Positions 1,895 through 47,585 of a stretch of 64,000 nt of DNA are shown one piece after another; within the stretch, counting starts at the first letter, position 1; every line of letters begins with the position of its first letter. Source of the DNA: Patescibacteria group bacterium (GTDB lineage Bacteria > Patescibacteriota > Patescibacteriia > Magasanikbacterales > GWA2-37-8); the NCBI GenBank assembly GCA_004321885.1, contig SCQK01000004.1, forward strand, positions 22,684 to 86,683, in the 5' to 3' direction. The notes under the pieces are model-generated. The model made no database searches. It was not told the origin of the DNA and worked only from the letters and a program-made list of their open reading frames with translations. The position numbers were made by a program, and so were the translations under genes.

Positions 1895-2656
1895 ATGCCC
1901 AAGCAACCTTATAAAATCATTGCTGAAACTGCGGATTATCTGGTGGTGGAAAAACCGGCCGGCCTGTTGACGCATTCCACCGCCAAACGCGAGCCAGACT
2001 CACTGGCTGAGTTGTTGGCAAAAAAATACCCGGAAATGCGCGAGGTGGGCGACTCCCCGGCCGAACGCCCGGGCATTGCGCACCGGCTGGACAAAGAAGC
2101 CTCGGGCTTGCTGGCGGCGGCGCGCACCCAAAAGATGTTTGAACATTTGAAAAAACAGTTCCAGGAACGAACCGTGGAAAAAGAATACATCGCCCTGGTA
2201 CACGGCAAGGTGGCAAAAGATGTCGGCGAAATAAACTTCCCCATCGGCCGAGCGACGAACAAGGAGAGGATGGCGGCCAGGCCGTTTACCCCTCCCTCGC
2301 CACCACACCAAAAATTTTGGTGTGGTGGCGAGCCCTCCCCTTCTAAGGGGGAGGGGAAAATGGCCAGCACTGAATTTGAGGTGGAAAAGCGATTCATCAA
2401 TTTCACCCTATTGCGCGTCAAAATCCACACCGGCCGCATGCACCAGATTCGCGTTCATTTGCTCGCCTACGGCAACCCGCTCGTCGGCGACCCGCTCTAC
2501 ATCAAAAGAAAACAAAAGCGCAAATGGGACCAGGCGCTGGGACGACTTTTCTTGCACTGCGTAAAATTAGTGTTCAAAGATTTGAATGGGGCGCCGCGAA
2601 CATTTACTTCCCCGTTGCCGCTTGAATTGGAAAATTTTCTTAAAAAAATAAAGTAG
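1895..2656 (+). CDS. RluA-family pseudouridine synthase carrying a 24-aa in-frame insertion encoded by a palindromic repeat
   Basis: HRLDKEASG and GRMHQIRVHL motifs. The insertion FTPPSPPHQKFWCGGEPSPSKGEG sits between conserved segments. Confidence 0.8.
   Translation: MPKQPYKIIAETADYLVVEKPAGLLTHSTAKREPDSLAELLAKKYPEMREVGDSPAERPGIAHRLDKEASGLLAAARTQKMFEHLKKQFQERTVEKEYIALVHGKVAKDVGEINFPIGRATNKERMAARPFTPPSPPHQKFWCGGEPSPSKGEGKMASTEFEVEKRFINFTLLRVKIHTGRMHQIRVHLLAYGNPLVGDPLYIKRKQKRKWDQALGRLFLHCVKLVFKDLNGAPRTFTSPLPLELENFLKKIK
2297..2356. repeat. Near-perfect 35-bp palindrome (TCGCCACCACACC..GGTGTGGTGGCGA) plus a family-A GC-rich palindromic element, in frame inside rluA
   Basis: Arms 2297..2309 and 2319..2331 are exact reverse complements. 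CCCTCCCCTTCTAAGGGGGAGGGG lies at 2333..2356. Confidence 0.8.
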
Positions 2657-3628: not shown

Positions 3629-3705
3629 CTGGCTCCATACTCTGTGTGGAGCCAGTTTGCAATACGGCTCCACAGCCCCGACTAAGTCGGGGACTATGGA
3701 GCCAG
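3629..3705. mobile_element. MITE-like family-B element with two stacked hairpins, in reverse orientation relative to the copies at 13683
   Basis: CTGGCTCCATACTCTGTGTGGAGCCAG + TTTGCAATAC + GGCTCCACAGCCCCGACTAAGTCGGGGACTATGGAGCC. It is the reverse complement of the 13683..13769 unit except for the central loop base. Confidence 0.7.
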
Positions 3706-3733
3706 CTACTGACCAGCGATTGGGAGCGGGATT

Positions 3734-6658
3734 TTATCCTTTTAAGTACTTCCCGGTCCAGCTTTTTTTGCTCTTCATAATATCACGCGGAGCGCCCGCG
3801 GCCACAATCTCTCCGCCCTTGTCCCCGCCCTCTGGCCCCATGTCTATCACCCAATCGGCTGAACGTATCACGTCCAGATTGTGCTCTATCACCAGCACGG
3901 TGTTGCCTTTGGCCACCAATCTGTTCAACACTTCCAACAAATGTTTTATATCTTCAAAATGCAAGCCAGTGGTGGGTTCGTCCAAAATATATAATGAATG
4001 TCCGGACGCGCTGCGCGACAGCTCGGCGGACAGCTTTATTCTCTGGGCTTCGCCGCCCGAAACCGTGGTGGCCGGCTGGCCCAGCTGAACATAGCCCAAA
4101 CCGATTTCGCGCAACACGCCCAACTTGCCGGCGATGGGCGGAACGTCGTTAAAAAAAGCAAAGGCCTCGTCTACGGTCATACGCAAGACATCGGCGATAT
4201 TCTTGTTGCGGTAATGTATCTCCAGGGCCTCGCGATTATAGCGGTCTCCGCCGCACTCATTGCACTGCATGTACACGTCGGCCAAAAATTGCATGGGGAT
4301 GCGCACATAGCCCTCACCGGCGCAGGCCTCGCAACGGCCCCCGCCCTTCACGTTAAAACTGAACTTGCCGGCGTCGTAGCCGTTCATTTTGGCTTCGGGC
4401 AAACCGGCGAACAAATCGCGAATCAAAGTAAACAGCCCCGTGTACGTAGCCGGATTACTGCGCGGGGTGCGGCCGATGGGCGACTGGTCCACGGTAATTA
4501 CTTTGTCAATATTTTCAATGCCTTTAATTTTTTTGTGCTCGCCCGGCAAATCTTTGGCCCGATAAAAATGGCGGGCCAGCTGTCTGCCCAAAATATCCAC
4601 GATGAGCGAAGACTTGCCCGAACCAGACACGCCGGTCACGCACACGAATTTGCCCAAGGGGATGTCGGCGTCCACATTTTTCAAATTAAAGGCCCTGGCG
4701 CCGAGGATAGAAATTTTTTTGTTGGATTTTTGCAGACGCGCCCCCATTTTTATGGGCAGGACGCCCCGGCCGACTAGATACTTTCCCGTAACCGATTTTT
4801 TATTTTTTTTTATCTGTTGTAAACTGCCGGCCGCCACGATTTCGCCGCCGGAGAGGCCGGCGCCCGGCCCCATATCAATTAAATAATCCGCGCCGGCCAT
4901 CATAGCGCTGTCGTGCTCCACCACTATTACAGTGTTGCCCAAATCGCGCAAAAATTTCAGGGCGCCGATGAGTTTGGCGTTGTCTTTGGGATGCAGGCCC
5001 ACCGAAGGCTCGTCTAAAATATATATAATGCCGGTAAGGCCCGACGACAGCTGGCCGGCCAAACGCACGCGCGTCACCTCTCCACCCGAGAGCGTGTTCA
5101 TGGCGCGCCCCAGCGACAAGTATCCCAAGCCCACCTCCTGTAAATTTTGCAAGCGCTTGATTGTTTCTTTGATGATGGTTTCACCGTGCTGGGCAAAAAC
5201 TTTGCCTCCCATCCCCCATTTGTCCCCCCCTCTGGCAGAGGAAGAAAGCTTTTCCAAAACCGACACGGCTTGCCCGGCCGACAGCTCGGAAATATCCGCG
5301 ATGCTGTACTGGCCCAGCTTCACGGCCAATGACTCCACGCGCAAACGTTTGCCATGGCACAGGGAACACACCTGCTCGCGCATGTACTGTTCTATTTCAC
5401 CGCGCACATAATCAGAATCGGTCTCCAAATGCCGCTGGGTCAGATTGGTAATCACCCCGGAAAAAACGGTTTTCTTTCCGTCTATTTCGTATGTCTCGTT
5501 GTCGCCGTACAAAATCAGCTTCATCTGCGCATCGGAAAGTTCTGCTACTGGCGCATTCAGAGAAAAATCATGTTTCTGCGCGACCGCGGCCAGAATTTTT
5601 TGGTACCACGTTTGATTGCCGGTAATGCGGGTCCAGGGCTGGATAGCGCCCTCGGCCAAAGTAAGCCGCTTGTTAGGCGCCACCAGCTCCGGGTCAACTT
5701 CCATGGTCACGCCCAAACCAGTACAACGCGGGCAGGCGCCATAAGGGCTGTTAAAACTAAAACTGCGCATGTCAATCGCCGGCATTACTTTGCCGCATTT
5801 AGCGCACAGCCCTTCGGTGGAAAACAACACTTCCCTCCCCCTTTTTAAGGGGAAGGCGGGGTGGGGGTAAGACGCCGCAATCACACTGCCGTTGCTCAAA
5901 TCCAAGGCCGTCTCCACCATTTTGGCGATGTTGGGCTGTTTCTTGGCATTCTGGGTGGAAATATTTCCCACCACCAGTTCCACGTTGTATTTTTTATTGG
6001 GCAAAAAACCAAAACGCGCGAATTCGTTTAGTTTCATCAGCTCGCCGTTTACCCGCACCGTGTCAAAACCCGACTTTTCCACTTTGTCCAGCAATGCGGC
6101 ATGACTGGGTTCCCCTCCCCCTTTTAGAGCTTGTCCCGAACTTGTTTCGGGAGGGAGGACAGAGGAGGGGGTATTTGGCGAGGATGGGGTCAATGGAGAC
6201 AACACCCACACCTCGGAACTATTCCGCGTCATCTTTCTCACTTCCTCGGTAATCTGGCCGGGCGTAAACGACATCACTGGCACGCCGCAACCGGGGCAGT
6301 ATTGCGCGCCCACGCGCGCGAAGAGCAAACGCAAATAATCGTAAATCTCGGTGATAGTGCCCACGGTGGAACGCGGATTCTGCGAAGAACTTTTCTGGCC
6401 GATGGCGATGGTGGGAGAAAGCCCCTCCACGCTGTCCACGTCCGGCTTGTCGCGCACGTCCATAAACTGGCGCGCGAAAGAAGACAGCGACTCGGCGTAG
6501 CGGCGCTGGCCCTCGGCGTAAATTGTGTCAAAGGCGAGCGAGGATTTTCCCGAACCGGACAAGCCGGTAATCACTACCAGCTTGTTCTTGGGAATTTCCA
6601 CGTTTATATTCTTCAAGTTGTGTACTCTCGCCCCTTTGATGATTATTTTATCAGCCAT
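3734..6658 (-). CDS. uvrA: Excinuclease ABC subunit A (UvrA) with two in-frame family-A repeat insertions
   Basis: 974 aa. Two ABC ATPase modules with Walker [11 protein letters not shown] and [10 protein letters not shown], signature LSGGE twice, and zinc-finger cysteines. Collinear with E. coli UvrA apart from the short inserts. Confidence 0.95.
5832..5868. repeat. Family-A GC-rich palindromic element, in frame in uvrA (encodes ..[15 protein letters not shown]..)
   Basis: CCCTCCCCCTTTTTAAGGGGAAGGCGGGGTGGGGGTA. The uvrA reading frame is uninterrupted. Confidence 0.8.
6112..6173. repeat. Family-A element split by a small internal palindrome, in frame in uvrA (encodes ..[31 protein letters not shown]..)
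   Basis: CCCCTCCCCCTTTT..[AGAGCTTGTCCCGAACTTGTTTCGGGAGGGAGGACAG]..AGGAGGGGGTA. Confidence 0.75.
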
Positions 6659-8467: not shown

Positions 8468-8574
8468 AAATTTCCAATTTCCAATCAATGTCCAATGACC
8501 AATTACCAATATCCAATTTGGACATTTGGATTTTGGCATTGATTTGACATTGGAAATTTGTCATTTGTCATTTC
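8468..8574. repeat. AT-rich CCAAT-word repeat block (family C); direct repeat of the block at 9291..9410
   Basis: CCAATTTCCAATCAATGTCCAATGACCAATTACCAATATCCAATTTGGACATTTGGATTTTGGCATTGATTTGACATTGGAAATTTG. Internally it is quasi-palindromic. Confidence 0.7.
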
Positions 8575-9290: not shown

Positions 9291-9410
9291 AAATGACCAA
9301 TTACCAATAACCAATTTCCAATCAAATCCAAATGCCAAATAACAAACTTGGACATTTTAACTTTGACATTAGGAATTGATTTGATATTAGAAATTTGGAT
9401 TTTGGCATTT
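9291..9410. repeat. AT-rich CCAAT-word repeat block (family C), second direct copy
   Basis: TGACCAATTACCAATAACCAATTTCCAATCAAATCCAAATGCC..TTGGACATTTTAACTTTGACATTAGGAATTGATTTGATATTAGAAATTTGGATTTTGGCATT. Confidence 0.7.
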
Positions 9411-11785: not shown

Positions 11786-11801
11786 TTGCCCACGTCTTTT
11801 T

Positions 11802-11836
11802 CCTCCCCTTGTTAAGGGGAGGATTAAGGAGGGGTA
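11802..11836. repeat. Family-A GC-rich palindromic element, intergenic, upstream of rnj
   Basis: CCTCCCCTTGTTAAGGGGAGGATTAAGGAGGGGTA. Confidence 0.8.
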
Positions 11837-11860: not shown

Positions 11861-13675
11861 ATGATTAGACAACATTCACGAGGACGGCATCAGCGCGCGC
11901 GACGCGCCTATAACACGCCGCCCAAAGAAGCGCCGGCGCAAAGCGCGAACGGCAAGCCAAATATTATCCGGCCCATCTACCAAAAGCCGTCGTTTTCGCG
12001 TTTCAAAAACGATGATTTGAAACTAAAAATCGCGGTCTTGGGCGGGCTGGAAGAAGTGGGTCGCAACTGCACTTTATTTGAATACGACGGCGATATTATT
12101 TTGGTTGACATGGGCCTGCAATTCCCCGAAGAAGATATGCCCGGCATTGATTACATCATTCCCAACATCGGCTATCTGAAAGGCAAGGAAAAAAATATCC
12201 GCGGGGTGATTATCACCCACGCTCACTACGACCACATCGGCGGCATACCCCACCTGATTCCGGCTCTCGGCTATCCCCCGATTTACGGCCTGCCGCTGAC
12301 GAACGCCATCATCAAAAAGCGCCAGGAGGATTACCGTGGCCTGCGGCCGCTAAACATTCATAATATAAATGTGGCTGATAAGTTGCAATTAGGAAATTTT
12401 GAACTGGAATTTTTTCACCTGAACCACAACATCCCCGATTCCATGGGCGTGGTGATTCGCACTCCAGAAGGCGTAGTGGTGCACACCGGCGACTGGAAAT
12501 TTGACTACCAACCGGCCGGCGAACAGCCCGCGGACTTGCAAAGAATAGCGTCCATCGGCAGTCAGGGCGTGCTGGCGCTTTTGTCCGACAGCACCAATGC
12601 CTCGTCCCCGGGCCACCAGATCTCCGAGTCCGAAATCCGCACCAATCTGGATGACATCATTGCCAAGGCCCCGGGCCGCATAATCATCGGCACTTTTTCT
12701 TCGCTCTTGTCGCGCATCAAGCAGATTATTGAAATCTCCGAAAAACTGGGCAAGGTGGTGGCCCTGGACGGCTTTAGCATGAAAAGCAACGTGGCCATTG
12801 CCAAAGAACTAAACTACATGCGATTCAGTCCCAAGACCTTGATTGACCTAAACCGCACGCGCGATTACCCGGACAACAAGGTGGTCATCGTGTGTACTGG
12901 CGCCCAGGGAGAAAAAAACGCTTCCCTAATGCGTATTGCCAGCGGCGAGCACCGCTTGATAGAACTGACGCCCGGGGATACGGTGGTGTTTTCTTCTTCG
13001 GTTATCCCGGGCAACGAGCGCACTGTTCAGCGCCTCAAAGACACTCTTTTTCGCAAAGGCGCCGAGGTGATTCATTACCAGATGATGGACGTGCACGCCG
13101 GCGGGCACGCCAAGGCCGATGACGTGAAGCTAATGATACGCCTGCTTTCGCCCAAGTATTTTATTCCCATTGAAGGCAACCACTTTTTATTGCACTACAA
13201 CGCCAAGGTGGCTGAAAGCATGGGCTTTCCCAAAGAAAATATTTTTATCGCCGACAACGGGCAAGTAATGGAATTTTTCCGCGGCGCCGGCCAGCTCACC
13301 AGAACCAAACTGCCGGCCGATTACGTGTTCGTGGACGGCCTGGGCGTGAGCGATGAAACCAACATTGTTTTGCGCGACCGGCAAGTCCTGGCCGAAGACG
13401 GCATGATTGTGGTGATAGCCACCGTGGACAGCAAAACCGGCAAGCTGGTGCAAAACCCGGATATTATTTCGCGCGGGTTTGTGTTTTTGAAAGAAAACAA
13501 GGAGCTGATAGAAGACCTGCGCCACCGCGTAAAAAAGCTGGTTACCGACAGCGACCCGCTTTCCTGGGCCGACACCAACAACATCCGCAACAAAATCCGC
13601 GACTATGTGGGACAATTTCTGTTTTCCAAAACCGAAAAACGCCCCATGGTGCTTCCAGTGGTGATAGAGGTATAA
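11861..13675 (+). CDS. rnj: Ribonuclease J (metallo-beta-lactamase / beta-CASP RNase)
   Basis: HAHYDHIGG motif, beta-CASP region, about 600 aa, with a basic N-terminal extension. Confidence 0.85.
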   Translation: MIRQHSRGRHQRARRAYNTPPKEAPAQSANGKPNIIRPIYQKPSFSRFKNDDLKLKIAVLGGLEEVGRNCTLFEYDGDIILVDMGLQFPEEDMPGIDYIIPNIGYLKGKEKNIRGVIITHAHYDHIGGIPHLIPALGYPPIYGLPLTNAIIKKRQEDYRGLRPLNIHNINVADKLQLGNFELEFFHLNHNIPDSMGVVIRTPEGVVVHTGDWKFDYQPAGEQPADLQRIASIGSQGVLALLSDSTNASSPGHQISESEIRTNLDDIIAKAPGRIIIGTFSSLLSRIKQIIEISEKLGKVVALDGFSMKSNVAIAKELNYMRFSPKTLIDLNRTRDYPDNKVVIVCTGAQGEKNASLMRIASGEHRLIELTPGDTVVFSSSVIPGNERTVQRLKDTLFRKGAEVIHYQMMDVHAGGHAKADDVKLMIRLLSPKYFIPIEGNHFLLHYNAKVAESMGFPKENIFIADNGQVMEFFRGAGQLTRTKLPADYVFVDGLGVSDETNIVLRDRQVLAEDGMIVVIATVDSKTGKLVQNPDIISRGFVFLKENKELIEDLRHRVKKLVTDSDPLSWADTNNIRNKIRDYVGQFLFSKTEKRPMVLPVVIEV

Positions 13676-13682
13676 ATAATCG

Positions 13683-13852
13683 CTGGCTCCATAGTCCCCG
13701 ACTAAGTCGGGGCTGTGGAGCCGTATTGCAAACTGGCTCCACACAGAGTATGGAGCCAGCGGGTGTAGAAAATCGCTGGCTCCATAGTCCCCGACTAAGT
13801 CGGGGCTGTGGAGCCGTATTGCAAACTGGCTCCACACAGAGTATGGGGTCAG
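13683..13852. mobile_element. Two tandem MITE-like family-B elements between the convergent genes rnj and ldh
   Basis: Unit 13683..13769 (CTGGCTCCATAGTCCCCGACTAAGTCGGGGCTGTGGAGCCGTATTGCAAACTGGCTCCACACAGAGTATGGAGCCAG) is repeated at 13776..13852 with a degenerate last arm. Confidence 0.8.
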
Positions 13853-13870
13853 CGAGCAAAGGGAGGGGTT

Positions 13871-15243: not shown

Positions 15244-15268
15244 AAACGCCCCTGTTAAGGGGGCGTTT
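15244..15268 (-). terminator. Rho-independent terminator of rnpB
   Basis: AAACGCCCC-TGTTAA-GGGGGCGTTT, followed on the minus strand by a U-rich tract (plus-strand AAACAAAAA at 15232..15243). Confidence 0.6.
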
Positions 15269-15269
15269 G

Positions 15270-15724
15270 TGGTTCATGGTTATAAGCCGAATTTTGTACC
15301 CCGACGTTACGTCGGGGCGATGTTCATTTCTCTGGTCTTGACATTGCTGTCAAAATCTTAGCGAGCGAACTTTTTATCCCGACTAAGTCGGGACTCTGCT
15401 CTTGCGCCAGACAGGGCTTGGCACTCTTCGACGTTGCCGCCGAAGGGAGTATGGTAGCTTTGGTCTCGAGAACCACAACTCCCATACACTTTTCACCTTT
15501 GACGAACCCCGACTAAGTCGGGGTGAACGTCCGCCTGTGGCGGACTCTCATGAATCGCTAGTATTGTCTCTGTGCCGCTTTCCCTACGCCGACGTTGCCG
15601 CCGACGTGGCGGGTGTTACCCGTTGCCTTTTTCTTTACCGGCTAGTTCCGCTAAGGGCGGACAGACGGAAAGGGCGTTCGGACTTTCCTTCCCGACTAAG
15701 TCGGGACGAACATCTGCCACGAAC
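15270..15724 (-). ncRNA. rnpB: RNase P RNA, bacterial type A
   Basis: Minus-strand RNA reads ..GGAAGGAAAGUCCGAAC.. (P4 5' strand), ..GGGUAACACCCGCC.., ..AGGUGAAAAGUG.., ..AUGAACAUCG-CCCCGACGUAACGUCGGGG-UACAAAAUUCGGCUUAUAACC.. (P15-P18 and P4 3' strand; compare E. coli AUGAAUGACUGUCCACGACAGAACCCGGCUUAUCGG). P1 is GUUCGUGG/CCAUGAAC. The ORF-track ORFs 15023..15361 and 15402..15731 lie inside it. Confidence 0.85.
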
Positions 15725-15730
15725 TGATTA

Positions 15731-18335: not shown

Positions 18336-19529
18336 ATGCGCGTTGGCATTGATGTCAGGCCGCTGATGAATGACGTGCGCACCGGCATTGGCGAATACAC
18401 GCATTTTTTGCTGGACACTATTTTTGACATTGATAAAAAGAACGAATATTTTCTGTTTTACAACTCCGGCAAAGATGTCGGCGCCAATATTCCCCAGTGG
18501 ACGCAAAATAATATTCATTATGTCGCGAGCAGATGGCCCAATAAAATTTTCAACGCGTCCATAAAATTTTTCAACCGGCCGCGAATCAAAGAGGTGGACA
18601 TTTTTTTTTCTCCTAATCTCAACTTCACCGCCCTGTCGCCGAAAACAAAATTTATTCTCACGGTTCACGACTTGTCCTTTGAGCTGTTTCCGGAATTTTT
18701 TTCCGCCAAACAGCGGCTGTGGCACAAAATGATAAACCCGCGCAGACAATGCCAGCGGGCCGATATTATTATCGCGCCCTCTGAAAACACCAAGCGGGAT
18801 TTGAGGGAGATATATAATATAGAAGAGAAAAAAATAAAAGTGATTTACCCGGGAATATGTCATCCCGACCCGCCACAGGGCGGGGAGGGATCTCTGTTCA
18901 CGGCTGGCTCCATAATCCCCCCCACAGGGGTGGAGCTAAACTGCAAGCTGGCTCCACAGCCCGCCTTTGGCGGGATTATGGAGCCAGCCAATTCCAATCC
19001 CTACATCCTCTTCCTCGGCACCATTGAGCCGCGCAAAAATATTATCGGCCTGATAGAGGCGTTTGAAAAAGCCTGCCCCTCGCTCCCGGCGCCTTACACC
19101 CTCGTTATCGCCGGGGCCGCGGGCTGGAACAATAAACAGATTTACGAACGCGCCAAAAATTCCCCCATTAAAGATAAAATTAAAATTTTGGGATACGTGC
19201 GGCCGGAAGAAAAGCCGGCTCTGTATGCCGGCGCGGCCTTGTTTTGCTATCCCAGCATTTACGAGGGCTTTGGTTTTCCGGTTTTGGAAGCCATGTCCGC
19301 GGGGACTCCGGTTTTAACCTCAAACCGCTCTTCCCTGCCGGAAATAACGAGCGGCGCCGCGCACCTGGTAAATCCAAACAATGTTTCCGACATGGCCGCA
19401 GGCATAATAAACATTTTAACCAACGAAAAACTGCGCAATTTTTTGAAAGAAAAGGGCCAAGAGCAGGCCGCGAAATTTTTATGGCAAGAAGCGGCGGAAA
19501 AATTTTTAAGCGTTATTCGCTCTTTGTAA
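18336..19529 (+). CDS. Glycosyltransferase family 4 with an in-frame MITE-like (family-B-related) insertion
   Basis: GT4 motifs (LGTIEPRKNI, YEGFGFPVLEAMSAGTPVL). The roughly 30-aa insert SLFTAGSIIPPTGVELNCKLAPQPAFGGIMEPA is encoded by the repeat at 18903..18987. Confidence 0.8.
   Translation: MRVGIDVRPLMNDVRTGIGEYTHFLLDTIFDIDKKNEYFLFYNSGKDVGANIPQWTQNNIHYVASRWPNKIFNASIKFFNRPRIKEVDIFFSPNLNFTALSPKTKFILTVHDLSFELFPEFFSAKQRLWHKMINPRRQCQRADIIIAPSENTKRDLREIYNIEEKKIKVIYPGICHPDPPQGGEGSLFTAGSIIPPTGVELNCKLAPQPAFGGIMEPANSNPYILFLGTIEPRKNIIGLIEAFEKACPSLPAPYTLVIAGAAGWNNKQIYERAKNSPIKDKIKILGYVRPEEKPALYAGAALFCYPSIYEGFGFPVLEAMSAGTPVLTSNRSSLPEITSGAAHLVNPNNVSDMAAGIINILTNEKLRNFLKEKGQEQAAKFLWQEAAEKFLSVIRSL
18903..18987. 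repeat. Variant MITE-like element with CTGGCTCCA..TGGAGCCAG arms, inserted in frame in the GT4 gene
   Basis: CTGGCTCCATAATCCCCCCCACAGGGGTGGAGC + TAAACTGCAAG + CTGGCTCCACAGCCCGCCTTTGGCGGGATTATGGAGCCAG. It shares its outer arms with the units at 3629 and 13683. Confidence 0.75.
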
Positions 19530-26056: not shown

Positions 26057-26165
26057 CCCCTCCCCTTGATATCTGCGGATATTTACTCATTCGTTCGGAA
26101 GTAAAAGTATAAACTTTTACTTCACTCACTCATTTCGTAAATAAGGGGAGGGTTAGGGAGGGGTA
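26057..26165. repeat. Composite: a family-A element (CCCCTCCCCTTGAT ... ATAAGGGGAGGGTTAGGGAGGGGTA) split by a 70-bp AT-rich GAGTGA-family element
   Basis: Left half at 26057..26070 and right half at 26141..26165. The insert at 26071..26136 contains the palindrome GAAGTAAAAGT-ATA-AACTTTTACTTC and ATATCTGCGGATAT. The right half encodes the miaB C-terminus LPLPNPPLIYEMSE. Confidence 0.75.
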
Positions 26166-27456
26166 AAATAATTTCACCCTTTAAGACCCAAACATCAGCG
26201 GAAGTAATCTTAACATCCAAAATTTTTCCAATCAAATTTTTTGCGCCGGCAAACTGCGCGAGCTTCATTTCCGAAGAGTTGCCCGAGCAAATCCCTGCCT
26301 CGCATTTGTCCGCCAATACCGAAACTGTTTTGCCGATGTATTTTTGATTTTTGCGATAAGTTGTTTCTTCCATCAATTCTTGTAAAATCTGCCAGCGGCG
26401 CTTTTTTTCTAGGCGCGGCACATCATCTTTGAAGGCCCTGGCCGCGGCCGTCCCACTGCGCTGACTATACATGGCCGTGTAGGAAATGTCAAAATCACAC
26501 TCTTTGTACAGAGCCACCGTGTTTTGAAACTGTTTCTCGGTCTCGCCGCAAAAACCCGCGATAATATCCGTGCCAATGGCGATACTTGGTTTGGCCTGGC
26601 GGATTTTTTTTATCAAATCAATATATTGCTCCCGCGTGTACTGGCGATTCATCTTGCGCAAAATTTCATTATCCCCGCTTTGAACCGGCAGGTGCAGATA
26701 ATTCACCTGCTTGGGCAGTTTCAGCGCCTCTATTTGCGCGTCGGAAAAATAACGCGGGTCCGCGGCGGTAAAATGCAAGCGCTCCAACCCAGCCAACTTA
26801 TTCAGCTCTTTCAGTAAATCGACGAAACTGTCCCCCTCCCCCTTTTTAAGGGGGAGGTTGGGTAGGGGTAAATCCGGATCGCGGTAATTATTCACCACCT
26901 GCCCGAGCAGAATAATTTCTTTCGCGCCATTTTCAATCGCTATTTTTACCTCGTTAATAATTTCTTTGGCCGGCCGGTTTTTCTCGCGGCCGCGCGCCTG
27001 CGGCACCACGCAATAGGTGCAATAATTATCACAGCCGGTCTGAATAGTGATAAACGTTTGAAATCTACTCGTTCGCGCCGGCGCCAACTCTAAATAATCT
27101 CCAAGGTCAGCGCCTCCCAGCCATCTTGACAGCACCCCCATTTCGTGTATCGGAAAATACAAGTCAACCCCTTTTAGCCTGCTTTTTAACTTCCCGTCTT
27201 TGTCGCGGCCCGGCATACAGCCGGTAACAGCGATTGTCAAATCCGGCTTTTTTGCCTTAAGTTGGCTCCAATTTCGCACTAGCCCGTGAACGCGGTCTTC
27301 GGCGCTTTGGCGCACCGAGCAGGTATTGACAATTAGTAAATCCGAGTTTTCGGCTTTGGCGCTTCTGGTCATCCCCAAGAAATTCAAAAAACCGGCGATT
27401 CTCTCTGAATCGTTTTTGTTCATCTGACAGCCGAAGGTAACGAGAAAATACTTCAT
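26122..27456 (-). CDS. miaB: tRNA methylthiotransferase, radical-SAM MiaB family
   Basis: MTTase N-terminal domain (FLVTFGCQMNKNDSE), radical-SAM CxxxCxxC (GCDNYCTYCVVP), TRAM C-terminus. Contains an in-frame family-A insert ([16 protein letters not shown]). Confidence 0.85.
   Translation of the reverse strand: MKYFLVTFGCQMNKNDSERIAGFLNFLGMTRSAKAENSDLLIVNTCSVRQSAEDRVHGLVRNWSQLKAKKPDLTIAVTGCMPGRDKDGKLKSRLKGVDLYFPIHEMGVLSRWLGGADLGDYLELAPARTSRFQTFITIQTGCDNYCTYCVVPQARGREKNRPAKEIINEVKIAIENGAKEIILLGQVVNNYRDPDLPLPNLPLKKGEGDSFVDLLKELNKLAGLERLHFTAADPRYFSDAQIEALKLPKQVNYLHLPVQSGDNEILRKMNRQYTREQYIDLIKKIRQAKPSIAIGTDIIAGFCGETEKQFQNTVALYKECDFDISYTAMYSQRSGTAAARAFKDDVPRLEKKRRWQILQELMEETTYRKNQKYIGKTVSVLADKCEAGICSGNSSEMKLAQFAGAKNLIGKILDVKITSADVWVLKGEIILPLPNPPLIYEMSE
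26832..26870. repeat. Family-A element in frame inside miaB
   Basis: CCCCCTCCCCCTTTTTAAGGGGGAGGTTGGGTAGGGGTA. Confidence 0.8.
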
Positions 27457-47534: not shown

Positions 47535-47552
47535 ATATTTTCCTTAGTTTTT

Positions 47553-47585
47553 CCTCCCCTTTTAGGGGAGGGACAGGGTGGGGTA
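47553..47585. repeat. Family-A element between rplR and rpsE
   Basis: CCTCCCCTTTTAGGGGAGGGACAGGGTGGGGTA. Confidence 0.75.

Follow-up and report, generated by a model that had tools for sequence, protein, structure and literature searches.

Can a gene for DNA repair hold copies of a dispersed palindromic repeat within its reading frame and still encode a working protein? The question is raised by uvrA in a stretch of 64,000 nucleotides from a Patescibacteria group bacterium (GenBank assembly GCA_004321885.1, contig SCQK01000004.1, positions 22,684 to 86,683 of the forward strand), which we analysed in full and call the window. An initial annotation held that this gene carries two in-frame insertions of a repeat termed family A, that the UvrA frame stays open across both, and that the second contains a nested palindrome. 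Each of these claims stands: both quoted peptides are exact (aa 263–277, positions 5828–5872, and aa 155–185, positions 6104–6196), the frame runs through 974 codons, and the palindrome lies at 6135–6151. The gene and its relevant parts are as follows, with the boundaries of the two elements taken from the family consensus.

3734–6658, minus strand: uvrA, a class I UvrA of 974 aa, an intact open reading frame (ORF) in the ORF list.
5831–5869, minus strand: family-A element 1, 39 nt or exactly 13 codons, aa 264–276.
6110–6173, minus strand: family-A element 2, 64 nt or about 22 codons, aa ~162–183.
6129–6152, strand not assigned: nested segment in element 2, whose core hairpin CCCGAA-CTTGT-TTCGGG is CCCGAACTTGTTTCGGG (17 nt, 6135–6151).
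6287–6298, minus strand: CPGC (C121, C124), first half of zinc module 1, its cysteines invariant or nearly so in 120 orthologues.
5795–5806, minus strand: CAKC (C285, C288), second half of zinc module 1, with conserved cysteines.

Our answer is that family A is probably a selfish palindromic repeat, similar to the repetitive extragenic palindromic (REP) sequences, that is tolerated in permissive loops of UvrA. The unit is about 39 nt long. Read on the G-rich strand, it consists of a hairpin, (T)TCCTCCCC(C)TT-nnn-AAGGGG(G)AGG, a spacer of 3–5 nt, and a G-rich tail ending in GGGGTA; the hairpin arms are CCTCCCC and GGGGAGG, and the tail mirrors the G-arm. The 13-mer CCCTCCCCCTTTT occurs exactly three times in the window (5833, 6113 and 26834) and, with up to two mismatches, 12 times, compared with 3.1 ± 1.9 times in shuffled sequence (0 of 100 shuffles reached 12). 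We built an nhmmer profile from seven seed copies, element 1 included, which score E = 1e-11 to 1e-7 by construction. The same profile recovered three copies outside the seed, at 43715 (diverged, E = 5e-5), 26141 (a half copy) and 2332 (in rluD). Altogether, the 64-kb window holds about ten copies, five in coding sequence and five between genes. At the Rfam gathering score, no match overlapped any family-A copy in the window or ten loci from other phyla.

The G-arm of family A is read in three different frames, as KRGRE, KKGEG and KGGGE, with no peptide in common, which argues for an element defined at the level of DNA rather than a protein module. When the four inserted peptides are pooled, they contain 21% Pro and 15% Gly. 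All five coding copies use the C-rich strand as the sense strand and are free of stops in the frame used, an orientation bias that is not significant at five of five. We considered whether stop codons close the G-rich orientation and rejected this explanation: about two-thirds of frames are open in both orientations (20 vs. 23 of 33 frames in the window; 2.39 vs. 2.36 per copy among 180 copies from elsewhere), and an rluD orthologue in locus L121 carries the G-rich orientation in-frame.

Within uvrA, element 1 reads on the plus strand as TTCCCTCCCCCTTTTTAAGGGGAAGGCGGGGTGGGGGTA, the hairpin followed by the G-rich tail, and its C-rich strand is the coding strand. It matches the profile at E = 3.6e-10, although it is itself one of the seven seeds, and its stem contains one mismatch. 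Element 2 shares the exact 13-mer with other copies, and its tail, ACAGAGGAGGGGGTA, resembles that of the copy at 41220. Its left arm is parted from the G-arm and tail by a foreign segment of 24 nt in the hairpin loop; once this segment is removed, the remainder matches profile positions 4–40 with 18.5 bits (E = 2e-4). Six of the eight family-A copies that were folded as DNA have z = −2.4 to −3.5, compared with z = −0.4 for element 1 and −1.3 for element 2, the weakest stems of the family. Such weak stems would fit either old copies or selection that disfavors strong mRNA hairpins.

The nested segment is most likely a second, unrelated small repeat, to judge by its sequence, because a related hairpin occurs in other Patescibacteria loci. 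This relative, CCTGAACTTGTTTCAGG, agrees with CCCGAACTTGTTTCGGG at 15 of 17 positions, and the two changes, both in the stem, are compensatory. It forms an inverted pair in-frame in the UvrA of orthologue P0010 (locus L124, 6925–7002) and is also found at L122 4145. As a repeat family of the window the nested hairpin was rejected, since it occurs there once and its relatives lie in orthologue loci only. A third candidate insertion in uvrA, a G-rich stretch at 5209–5247, was likewise discarded: this region is 44 aa long, and 44–45 aa is the commonest length among the 120 sequences described next.

To place the two elements in the protein family, we aligned the window UvrA with 119 Patescibacteria orthologues that are ~62–68% identical by BLASTP (120 sequences in all). 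The site of element 2, between the invariant residues P155 and L189, spans 11–12 aa in 118 of the 120, compared with 33 aa in the window and 21 aa in orthologue P0013. Deleting aa 162–183 from the window protein leaves exactly the usual loop of 11 residues. The site of element 1 (G257–S280) spans 13 aa in 91 of the 120 and 22 aa in the window, a net gain of nine residues. The initial annotation had named equivalent residues in orthologues as the observation that would overturn it, and none of the 119 orthologues has such residues at either site. Since excision restores the usual loop, 118 of the 120 proteins lack the residues of element 2, and element 1 exceeds the usual length of its site, the alignment indicates that both segments are insertions and not ancestral sequence.

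Where do the insertions fall in UvrA? The initial annotation had put them after the first ATPase half and ahead of the UvrB-binding/insertion domain. Instead, the two elements are flanked by the CxxC pairs of zinc module 1 (C121/C124 on one side, C285/C288 on the other), which places them inside the UvrB-binding domain. In Mycobacterium tuberculosis UvrA, this domain comprises residues 129–255, with the zinc-module stem on its flanks (PMC3167621); it is mobile, being joined via a flexible zinc-finger region (PMC12796330), and it controls the hand-off to UvrB (PMC12796330, PMC11985968). The Pfam domain UvrA_inter aligns only at profile positions 32–106, to aa 185–262, so element 2 splits the domain and element 1 sits at its C-terminal edge. 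We modeled the window protein with AlphaFold2, using the 120-sequence alignment as input (mean predicted local distance difference test, pLDDT, 85; predicted template modelling score 0.80). Modelling had been proposed as a check for surface loops, and the model places both inserts in loops. Element 2 coincides with a disordered coil at aa 160–182 (pLDDT < 50) between a strand (149–155) and a helix (186–196), and the only other segment below 50 is a short stretch at 791–796. Element 1 forms the loop at the tip of a β-hairpin between strands 258–264 and 276–280 (pLDDT 73–78).

The same loops have gained other repeats in other lineages. The site of element 1 is 20–50 aa long in about 12 orthologues, and these inserts are unrelated in sequence. 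We inspected the DNA of five orthologue loci (L121–L125). At the site of element 1, L121 and L122 contain a CCCCGC-nnnn-GCGGGG hairpin with a TAGGGGTGGG tail, laid out as in family A (one copy in P0024, several in P0060). At this same site, P0066 (L123) carries the repeat CATCCTGAGCGAAGCGAAGGATC and P0010 (L124) an inverted pair of CATCCTGAACTTGTTTCAGGATC; at the site of element 2, P0013 has a different small palindrome. P0024, P0060 and P0094 have repeat-derived inserts at three further positions in UvrA, and the family-A-like copy in L121 uvrA lies at another site than those in the window. Different palindromes at the same sites in separate lineages indicate that, across this group of Patescibacteria, G/C palindromes have colonized UvrA loops repeatedly and independently, as judged from their sequences.

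In other Patescibacteria UvrA proteins (L121 650–3661, L122 469–3636, L125 799–3711, and P0094), repeat-derived inserts occupy up to four further positions, at alignment columns of about 208, 670, 706 and 895. Examples of these inserts are NPPLKKGGKDEPPLFKAGAGG, LGGEGLKARGGLANVGQPPPT and TRSVIARSEATK.

The remaining family-A copies of the window lie in two other protein-coding genes and in intergenic DNA.

2288–2358, plus strand: copy in an rluD-like pseudouridine synthase gene (1895–2656, plus strand), in-frame and read as TPPSPPHQKFWCGGEPSPSKGEGK.
26832–26870, minus strand: copy in miaB (26122–27456, minus strand), in-frame, giving a peptide of 13 residues (E = 1e-10).
26141–26165, minus strand: half copy (G-arm and tail) encoding the C-terminal extension of MiaB, LPLPNPPLIYEMSE.
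11798–11836, plus strand: intergenic copy between a tRNA gene and the RNase J gene (DNA fold z = −3.4).
41205–41257, strand not assigned: intergenic two-tailed unit (TACCCC tail, hairpin, GGGGGTA tail) between mgtE-like and Nramp genes (z = −3.5).
42490–42528, plus strand: intergenic copy between map and mgtE-like genes.
43715–43749, plus strand: diverged intergenic copy upstream of map (profile E = 5e-5).
47548–47585, plus strand: intergenic copy in the ribosomal-protein operon between rplR (L18) and rpsE (S5).

The rluD copy resembles element 2 of uvrA in holding a nested palindrome, here of 33–37 nt in the spacer (CGCCACCACACCAAAAATTTTGGTGTGGTGGCG, 2296–2328), which is translated as PPHQKFWCGG. 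Without this nested part, the copy scores 19.5 bits (E = 9e-5). A second copy of the palindrome lies at 38077–38109, and the two are 91% complementary. The syntenic rluD of L121, the second gene of that locus with a family-A-like copy, has a different insert at the same site and in the opposite orientation. In miaB, the copy is read in another frame than element 1, and the insert adds about eight residues relative to the solved MiaB structure 7MJZ at that point.

How would such copies come to rest in essential genes? On the reading that we prefer, two family-A copies landed in uvrA and survived by adding whole codons in a stop-free frame, within surface loops of the mobile UvrB-binding domain that could tolerate a change in length. 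A unit of ~39 nt means that a clean insertion keeps the frame, and about two-thirds of frames are stop-free in either orientation. The elements would then be transcribed and translated with uvrA, their C- and G-runs yielding peptides rich in Pro and Gly, along with Lys, Arg and Ser, that should be flexible and compatible with a loop. In a genome with very little intergenic space, the in-gene copies that persist would be those in length-tolerant surface loops. Element 2 may later have been hit by a second kind of small hairpin, or may have arrived carrying one. The inserts themselves are most plausibly passengers, either neutral or mildly deleterious, and not functional modules. What the data show are the repeats, the open frame, the lack of these segments in orthologues, their place in the protein and the recurrence of inserts at the same sites in other lineages; the mobility of the element, its manner of copying, the translation of the inserts and their neutrality are inferred.

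Several observations weigh against this account. We found no transposase; tblastn with an E. coli RAYT query had no match in the window and 171 further loci (1.4 Mb), which is a weak negative. Compared by eye, the flanks of the listed copies bear no sign of target-site duplication, and apart from the hairpin there are no terminal inverted repeats. Since UvrB is contacted by the very domain that contains both inserts, they may affect its binding. Element 1 has 39 nt and adds a net nine residues only, which implies that ~12 nt of the original loop were lost or that the ancestral loop was shorter. Finally, the insertions are deduced from distant orthologues: the collections searched, which included one of 5.8 billion protein clusters, contain neither a close relative nor an allele with an empty site, and the nearest other UvrA in them is 68% identical.

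The location of both inserts in a mobile domain that controls hand-off (PMC12796330, PMC11985968) also suggests another possibility, namely that the two loops are an adaptation of this lineage and tune UvrA, for instance in how its UvrB-binding domain docks to UvrB or releases it. The repeated gain of inserts at the site of element 1 in other lineages would fit this idea. However, the same DNA element is read in three frames in unrelated proteins (UvrA, RluD and MiaB) and also lies between genes, the orthologue inserts at the shared site are unrelated and vary from 20 to 50 aa, element 2 is modeled as disordered, and neither peptide is conserved in any of the 119 orthologues. We therefore consider adaptive tuning unlikely.

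Alternatively, uvrA could be turning into a pseudogene: the gene would have become dispensable, and the repeats would be the earliest damage to it. Patescibacteria genomes are reduced and have lost repair genes, the weaker stems of the two uvrA copies (z = −0.4 and −1.3 vs. −2.4 to −3.5) are consistent with age, and uvrB was not found in the window, although at only 64 kb this absence says little. The state of the gene speaks against decay. Its 974-codon ORF has no frameshift, and its product is identical to TAN34028.1 (NCBI, ‘excinuclease ABC subunit UvrA [Patescibacteria group bacterium]’), an entry that bears no pseudogene flag. The protein matches Geobacillus UvrA (2R6F/3UWX) over aa 3–973 (phmmer E = 0) and contains the Pfam domains UvrA_inter, UvrA_DNA-bind and ABC_tran. 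Class I UvrA is defined by two ABC ATPase modules, three zinc modules, and UvrB-binding and DNA-binding (insertion) domains, and these matches, the Foldseek matches given below and the conserved cysteines of zinc module 1 place the window protein in this class. The columns without variation across the 120 sequences, those of both Walker A motifs and the zinc cysteines among them, are all retained, a result that holds by definition, as the window sequence is itself among the 120. The AlphaFold2 model is confident outside the inserts, and its best Foldseek matches are 3uwx_A and 2r6f_A (TM 0.76–0.82). Moreover, essential genes of the window, such as miaB, bear the same kind of insert. The intact ORF and retained invariant columns suggest that selection is still acting on uvrA, and the protein most likely stays functional. 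Incipient decay of the gene thus seems very improbable.

Could the segments be absent from the protein altogether, removed or bypassed by mini-intron-like excision of the RNA or by translational hopping of the ribosome? The elements can form hairpins, but all five coding copies keep the frame and are stop-free, which would be needless if they were removed; in addition, no Rfam family matches them, and the uvrA hairpins are the weakest of the family. We regard this mechanism as highly implausible. An error of assembly or binning that joined a repeat into uvrA is hardly credible at all, even though the source is a metagenome-assembled genome, given that the elements (39–64 nt) are shorter than a sequencing read, that the uvrA frame is collinear on both flanks and preserved throughout, and that orthologues assembled independently, from other samples, have similar inserts.

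Returning to family A as a tolerated selfish repeat, its closest counterpart in behavior is found in Rickettsia. In the account given in PMC10969869 (citing Ogata 2000, 2002), Rickettsia palindromic elements (RPEs) insert in-frame into unrelated housekeeping genes; they are described there as being about 100–150 bp long and confined to Rickettsia, each family having a conserved peptide in a fixed frame. Like RPEs, family A is a dispersed palindromic repeat of a reduced genome that occurs in-frame in unrelated genes (two copies each in uvrA and miaB, one in rluD), can be accommodated by the fold of the protein, and is also found between genes. Unlike RPEs, family A is 39 nt long (64–71 nt with nested inserts), which is 3–4 times shorter, and consists of a hairpin plus a mirror tail. 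It is also read in three frames without a conserved peptide and resides in Patescibacteria, features that set it apart from RPEs as described. By analogy, family A may work like an RPE, yet its host, a Patescibacteria metagenome-assembled genome, makes it very unlikely to be a member of an RPE family.

Similar comparisons can be made with other small repeats. REP sequences and their doublets (REPINs) in Proteobacteria are mobilized by RAYT transposases; classical REPs are extragenic, and those of E. coli have a GTAG head. Family A shares with them a short (20–40 nt) imperfect palindrome in many copies that is tolerated inside operons. It differs in that five of its ~10 window copies lie in coding sequence and are thus not extragenic, and in that its conserved end is GGGGTA and not GTAG. 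REPIN-like doublets are represented in the window by one two-tailed unit (41205–41257), the rest being singlets, and clear doublets appear only in relatives from other phyla: those in Betaproteobacteria, Cyanobacteria and Devosia are inverted doublets. [quoted passage not shown] ERIC and other small mobile sequences of enterobacteria are sometimes found inside ORFs as in-frame fusions (Delihas 2007, as cited in PMC10969869). Our full-text literature searches returned no description of such elements in Patescibacteria.

How widely is the family-A layout distributed? The pattern CCTCCCC-N5-9-GGGGAGG-N3-8-RGGGGTA matched at least 120 stretches in GTDB representative genomes (L001–L120) and 46 viral contigs of IMG/VR (L126–L171). 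The matches listed come from Alpha-, Beta-, Gamma- and Deltaproteobacteria, Cyanobacteria, Chloroflexota, Acidobacteriota, Nitrospirae, Bacteroidales and several Patescibacteria. We estimate that the bare pattern would occur by chance roughly 16 times (uniform composition) to 260 times (65% GC) in 596 Gb, and we therefore do not use the raw count as evidence. Among the matches listed, however, the stem is extended inward by at least 2 bp in 59%, compared with roughly 6–10% expected by chance (a rough estimate), the spacers are conserved (TTA, CTA), and several genomes have multiple copies. In Betaproteobacteria, the units form tail-to-tail inverted doublets around a variable center of 12–15 nt, and in Cyanobacteria they form doublets with the tails outward; both arrangements are REPIN-like. 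The stem extension, conserved spacers and doublets argue that the wider class is real.

The mirror relation between tail and G-arm extends to this wider set. In 159 parsed copies, the lengths of the G-runs in the tail follow those of the G-arm (r = 0.63 and 0.64 for matching runs, about 0 for crossed runs), a correlation that is inflated by relatedness among the copies. The tail is interrupted by A in 81 copies and by T in 74. An intramolecular triplex has just this geometry, with a mirror repeat beside a hairpin, and a quadruplex could be formed by the four G-runs; we take this as no more than a structural hint.

We also looked for in-frame copies in other phyla. Most of the ten ORFs inspected that span a family-A-like element in these GC-rich genomes look spurious, and they were set aside. 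Two long ORFs with protein-like flanks (IAVAHDKAFCFYYEDNLDLL; a CAVCH haem motif) contain family-A-like elements, one in a Nitrospirae genome (L079 1208–2704) and one in an Anaerolineae genome (L044 5847–7391). In-frame insertion may thus occur outside Patescibacteria as well.

Taken further, these results could mean that REP-like palindromes colonize essential proteins of Patescibacteria in general, and that family A belongs to a class of hairpin/mirror-tail elements that crosses phyla and extends to viral contigs. Such a combined claim is tentative, and we think it somewhat doubtful as a whole. On this claim, the phenomenon known from Rickettsia would have arisen a second time, independently, in a lineage with reduced genomes, apparently without having been described, with the loops of UvrA and RluD being hit repeatedly; the claim would also include the idea that a triplex or G-quadruplex could be what the copying machinery recognizes.

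Protein-coding palindromes have so far been treated as a peculiarity of Rickettsia, and what we see here is the same outcome in an unrelated, free-standing lineage of reduced genomes, produced by a much smaller element: four housekeeping-gene insertions in 64 kb, and UvrA loops that are hit by different repeat families across many Patescibacteria. If the phenomenon is general, it would account for some of the unusual variation in length among Patescibacteria proteins. It would also warn annotators and structure predictors that Pro/Gly-rich inserts of 10–50 aa in these genomes are repeat DNA and not domain features. Moreover, it would provide a natural map of insertion tolerance in UvrA, notably in its UvrB-binding domain, and would show selfish DNA seeding new loop sequence in essential proteins. 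UvrA may be a handy marker gene with which to survey repeat insertion.

The window contains other repeats and RNAs. Family B, also dispersed, is a second repeat of this kind, a long palindrome (GGCTCCATAGTCCCCGACTAAGTCGGGGCTGTGGAGCC...) whose copies are 94–99% complementary to one another and were all seen between genes, at 3629–3706, 13669–13854 (a 93-nt tandem pair), 18930–18962 and 45109–45165. One of these copies lies directly downstream of uvrA, between uvrA and rplS. The core of family B, the hairpin CCCGAC-TTA-GTCGGG, is present three times in the RNase P RNA gene (RF00010, 131.8 bits; 15267–15725, minus strand), where it replaces P3, lies in a ~46-nt insertion in the P12 region, and occurs at P18; this RNA is 459 nt long, compared with 367 positions in the model. 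Repeats may thus have colonized a structural RNA gene as well.

A direct repeat of 105 nt (70% identical, ACCAAT/TCCAAT-rich) is found at 8469–8573 and 9306–9410, upstream of two consecutive minus-strand genes that encode type IV secretion system (T4SS)-pilin-like and DsbA-like proteins, and may represent duplicated promoter or leader regions. Finally, a DUF3800-II RNA motif (RF02961) lies at 38568–38631 on the plus strand (67 bits, E = 1e-11).

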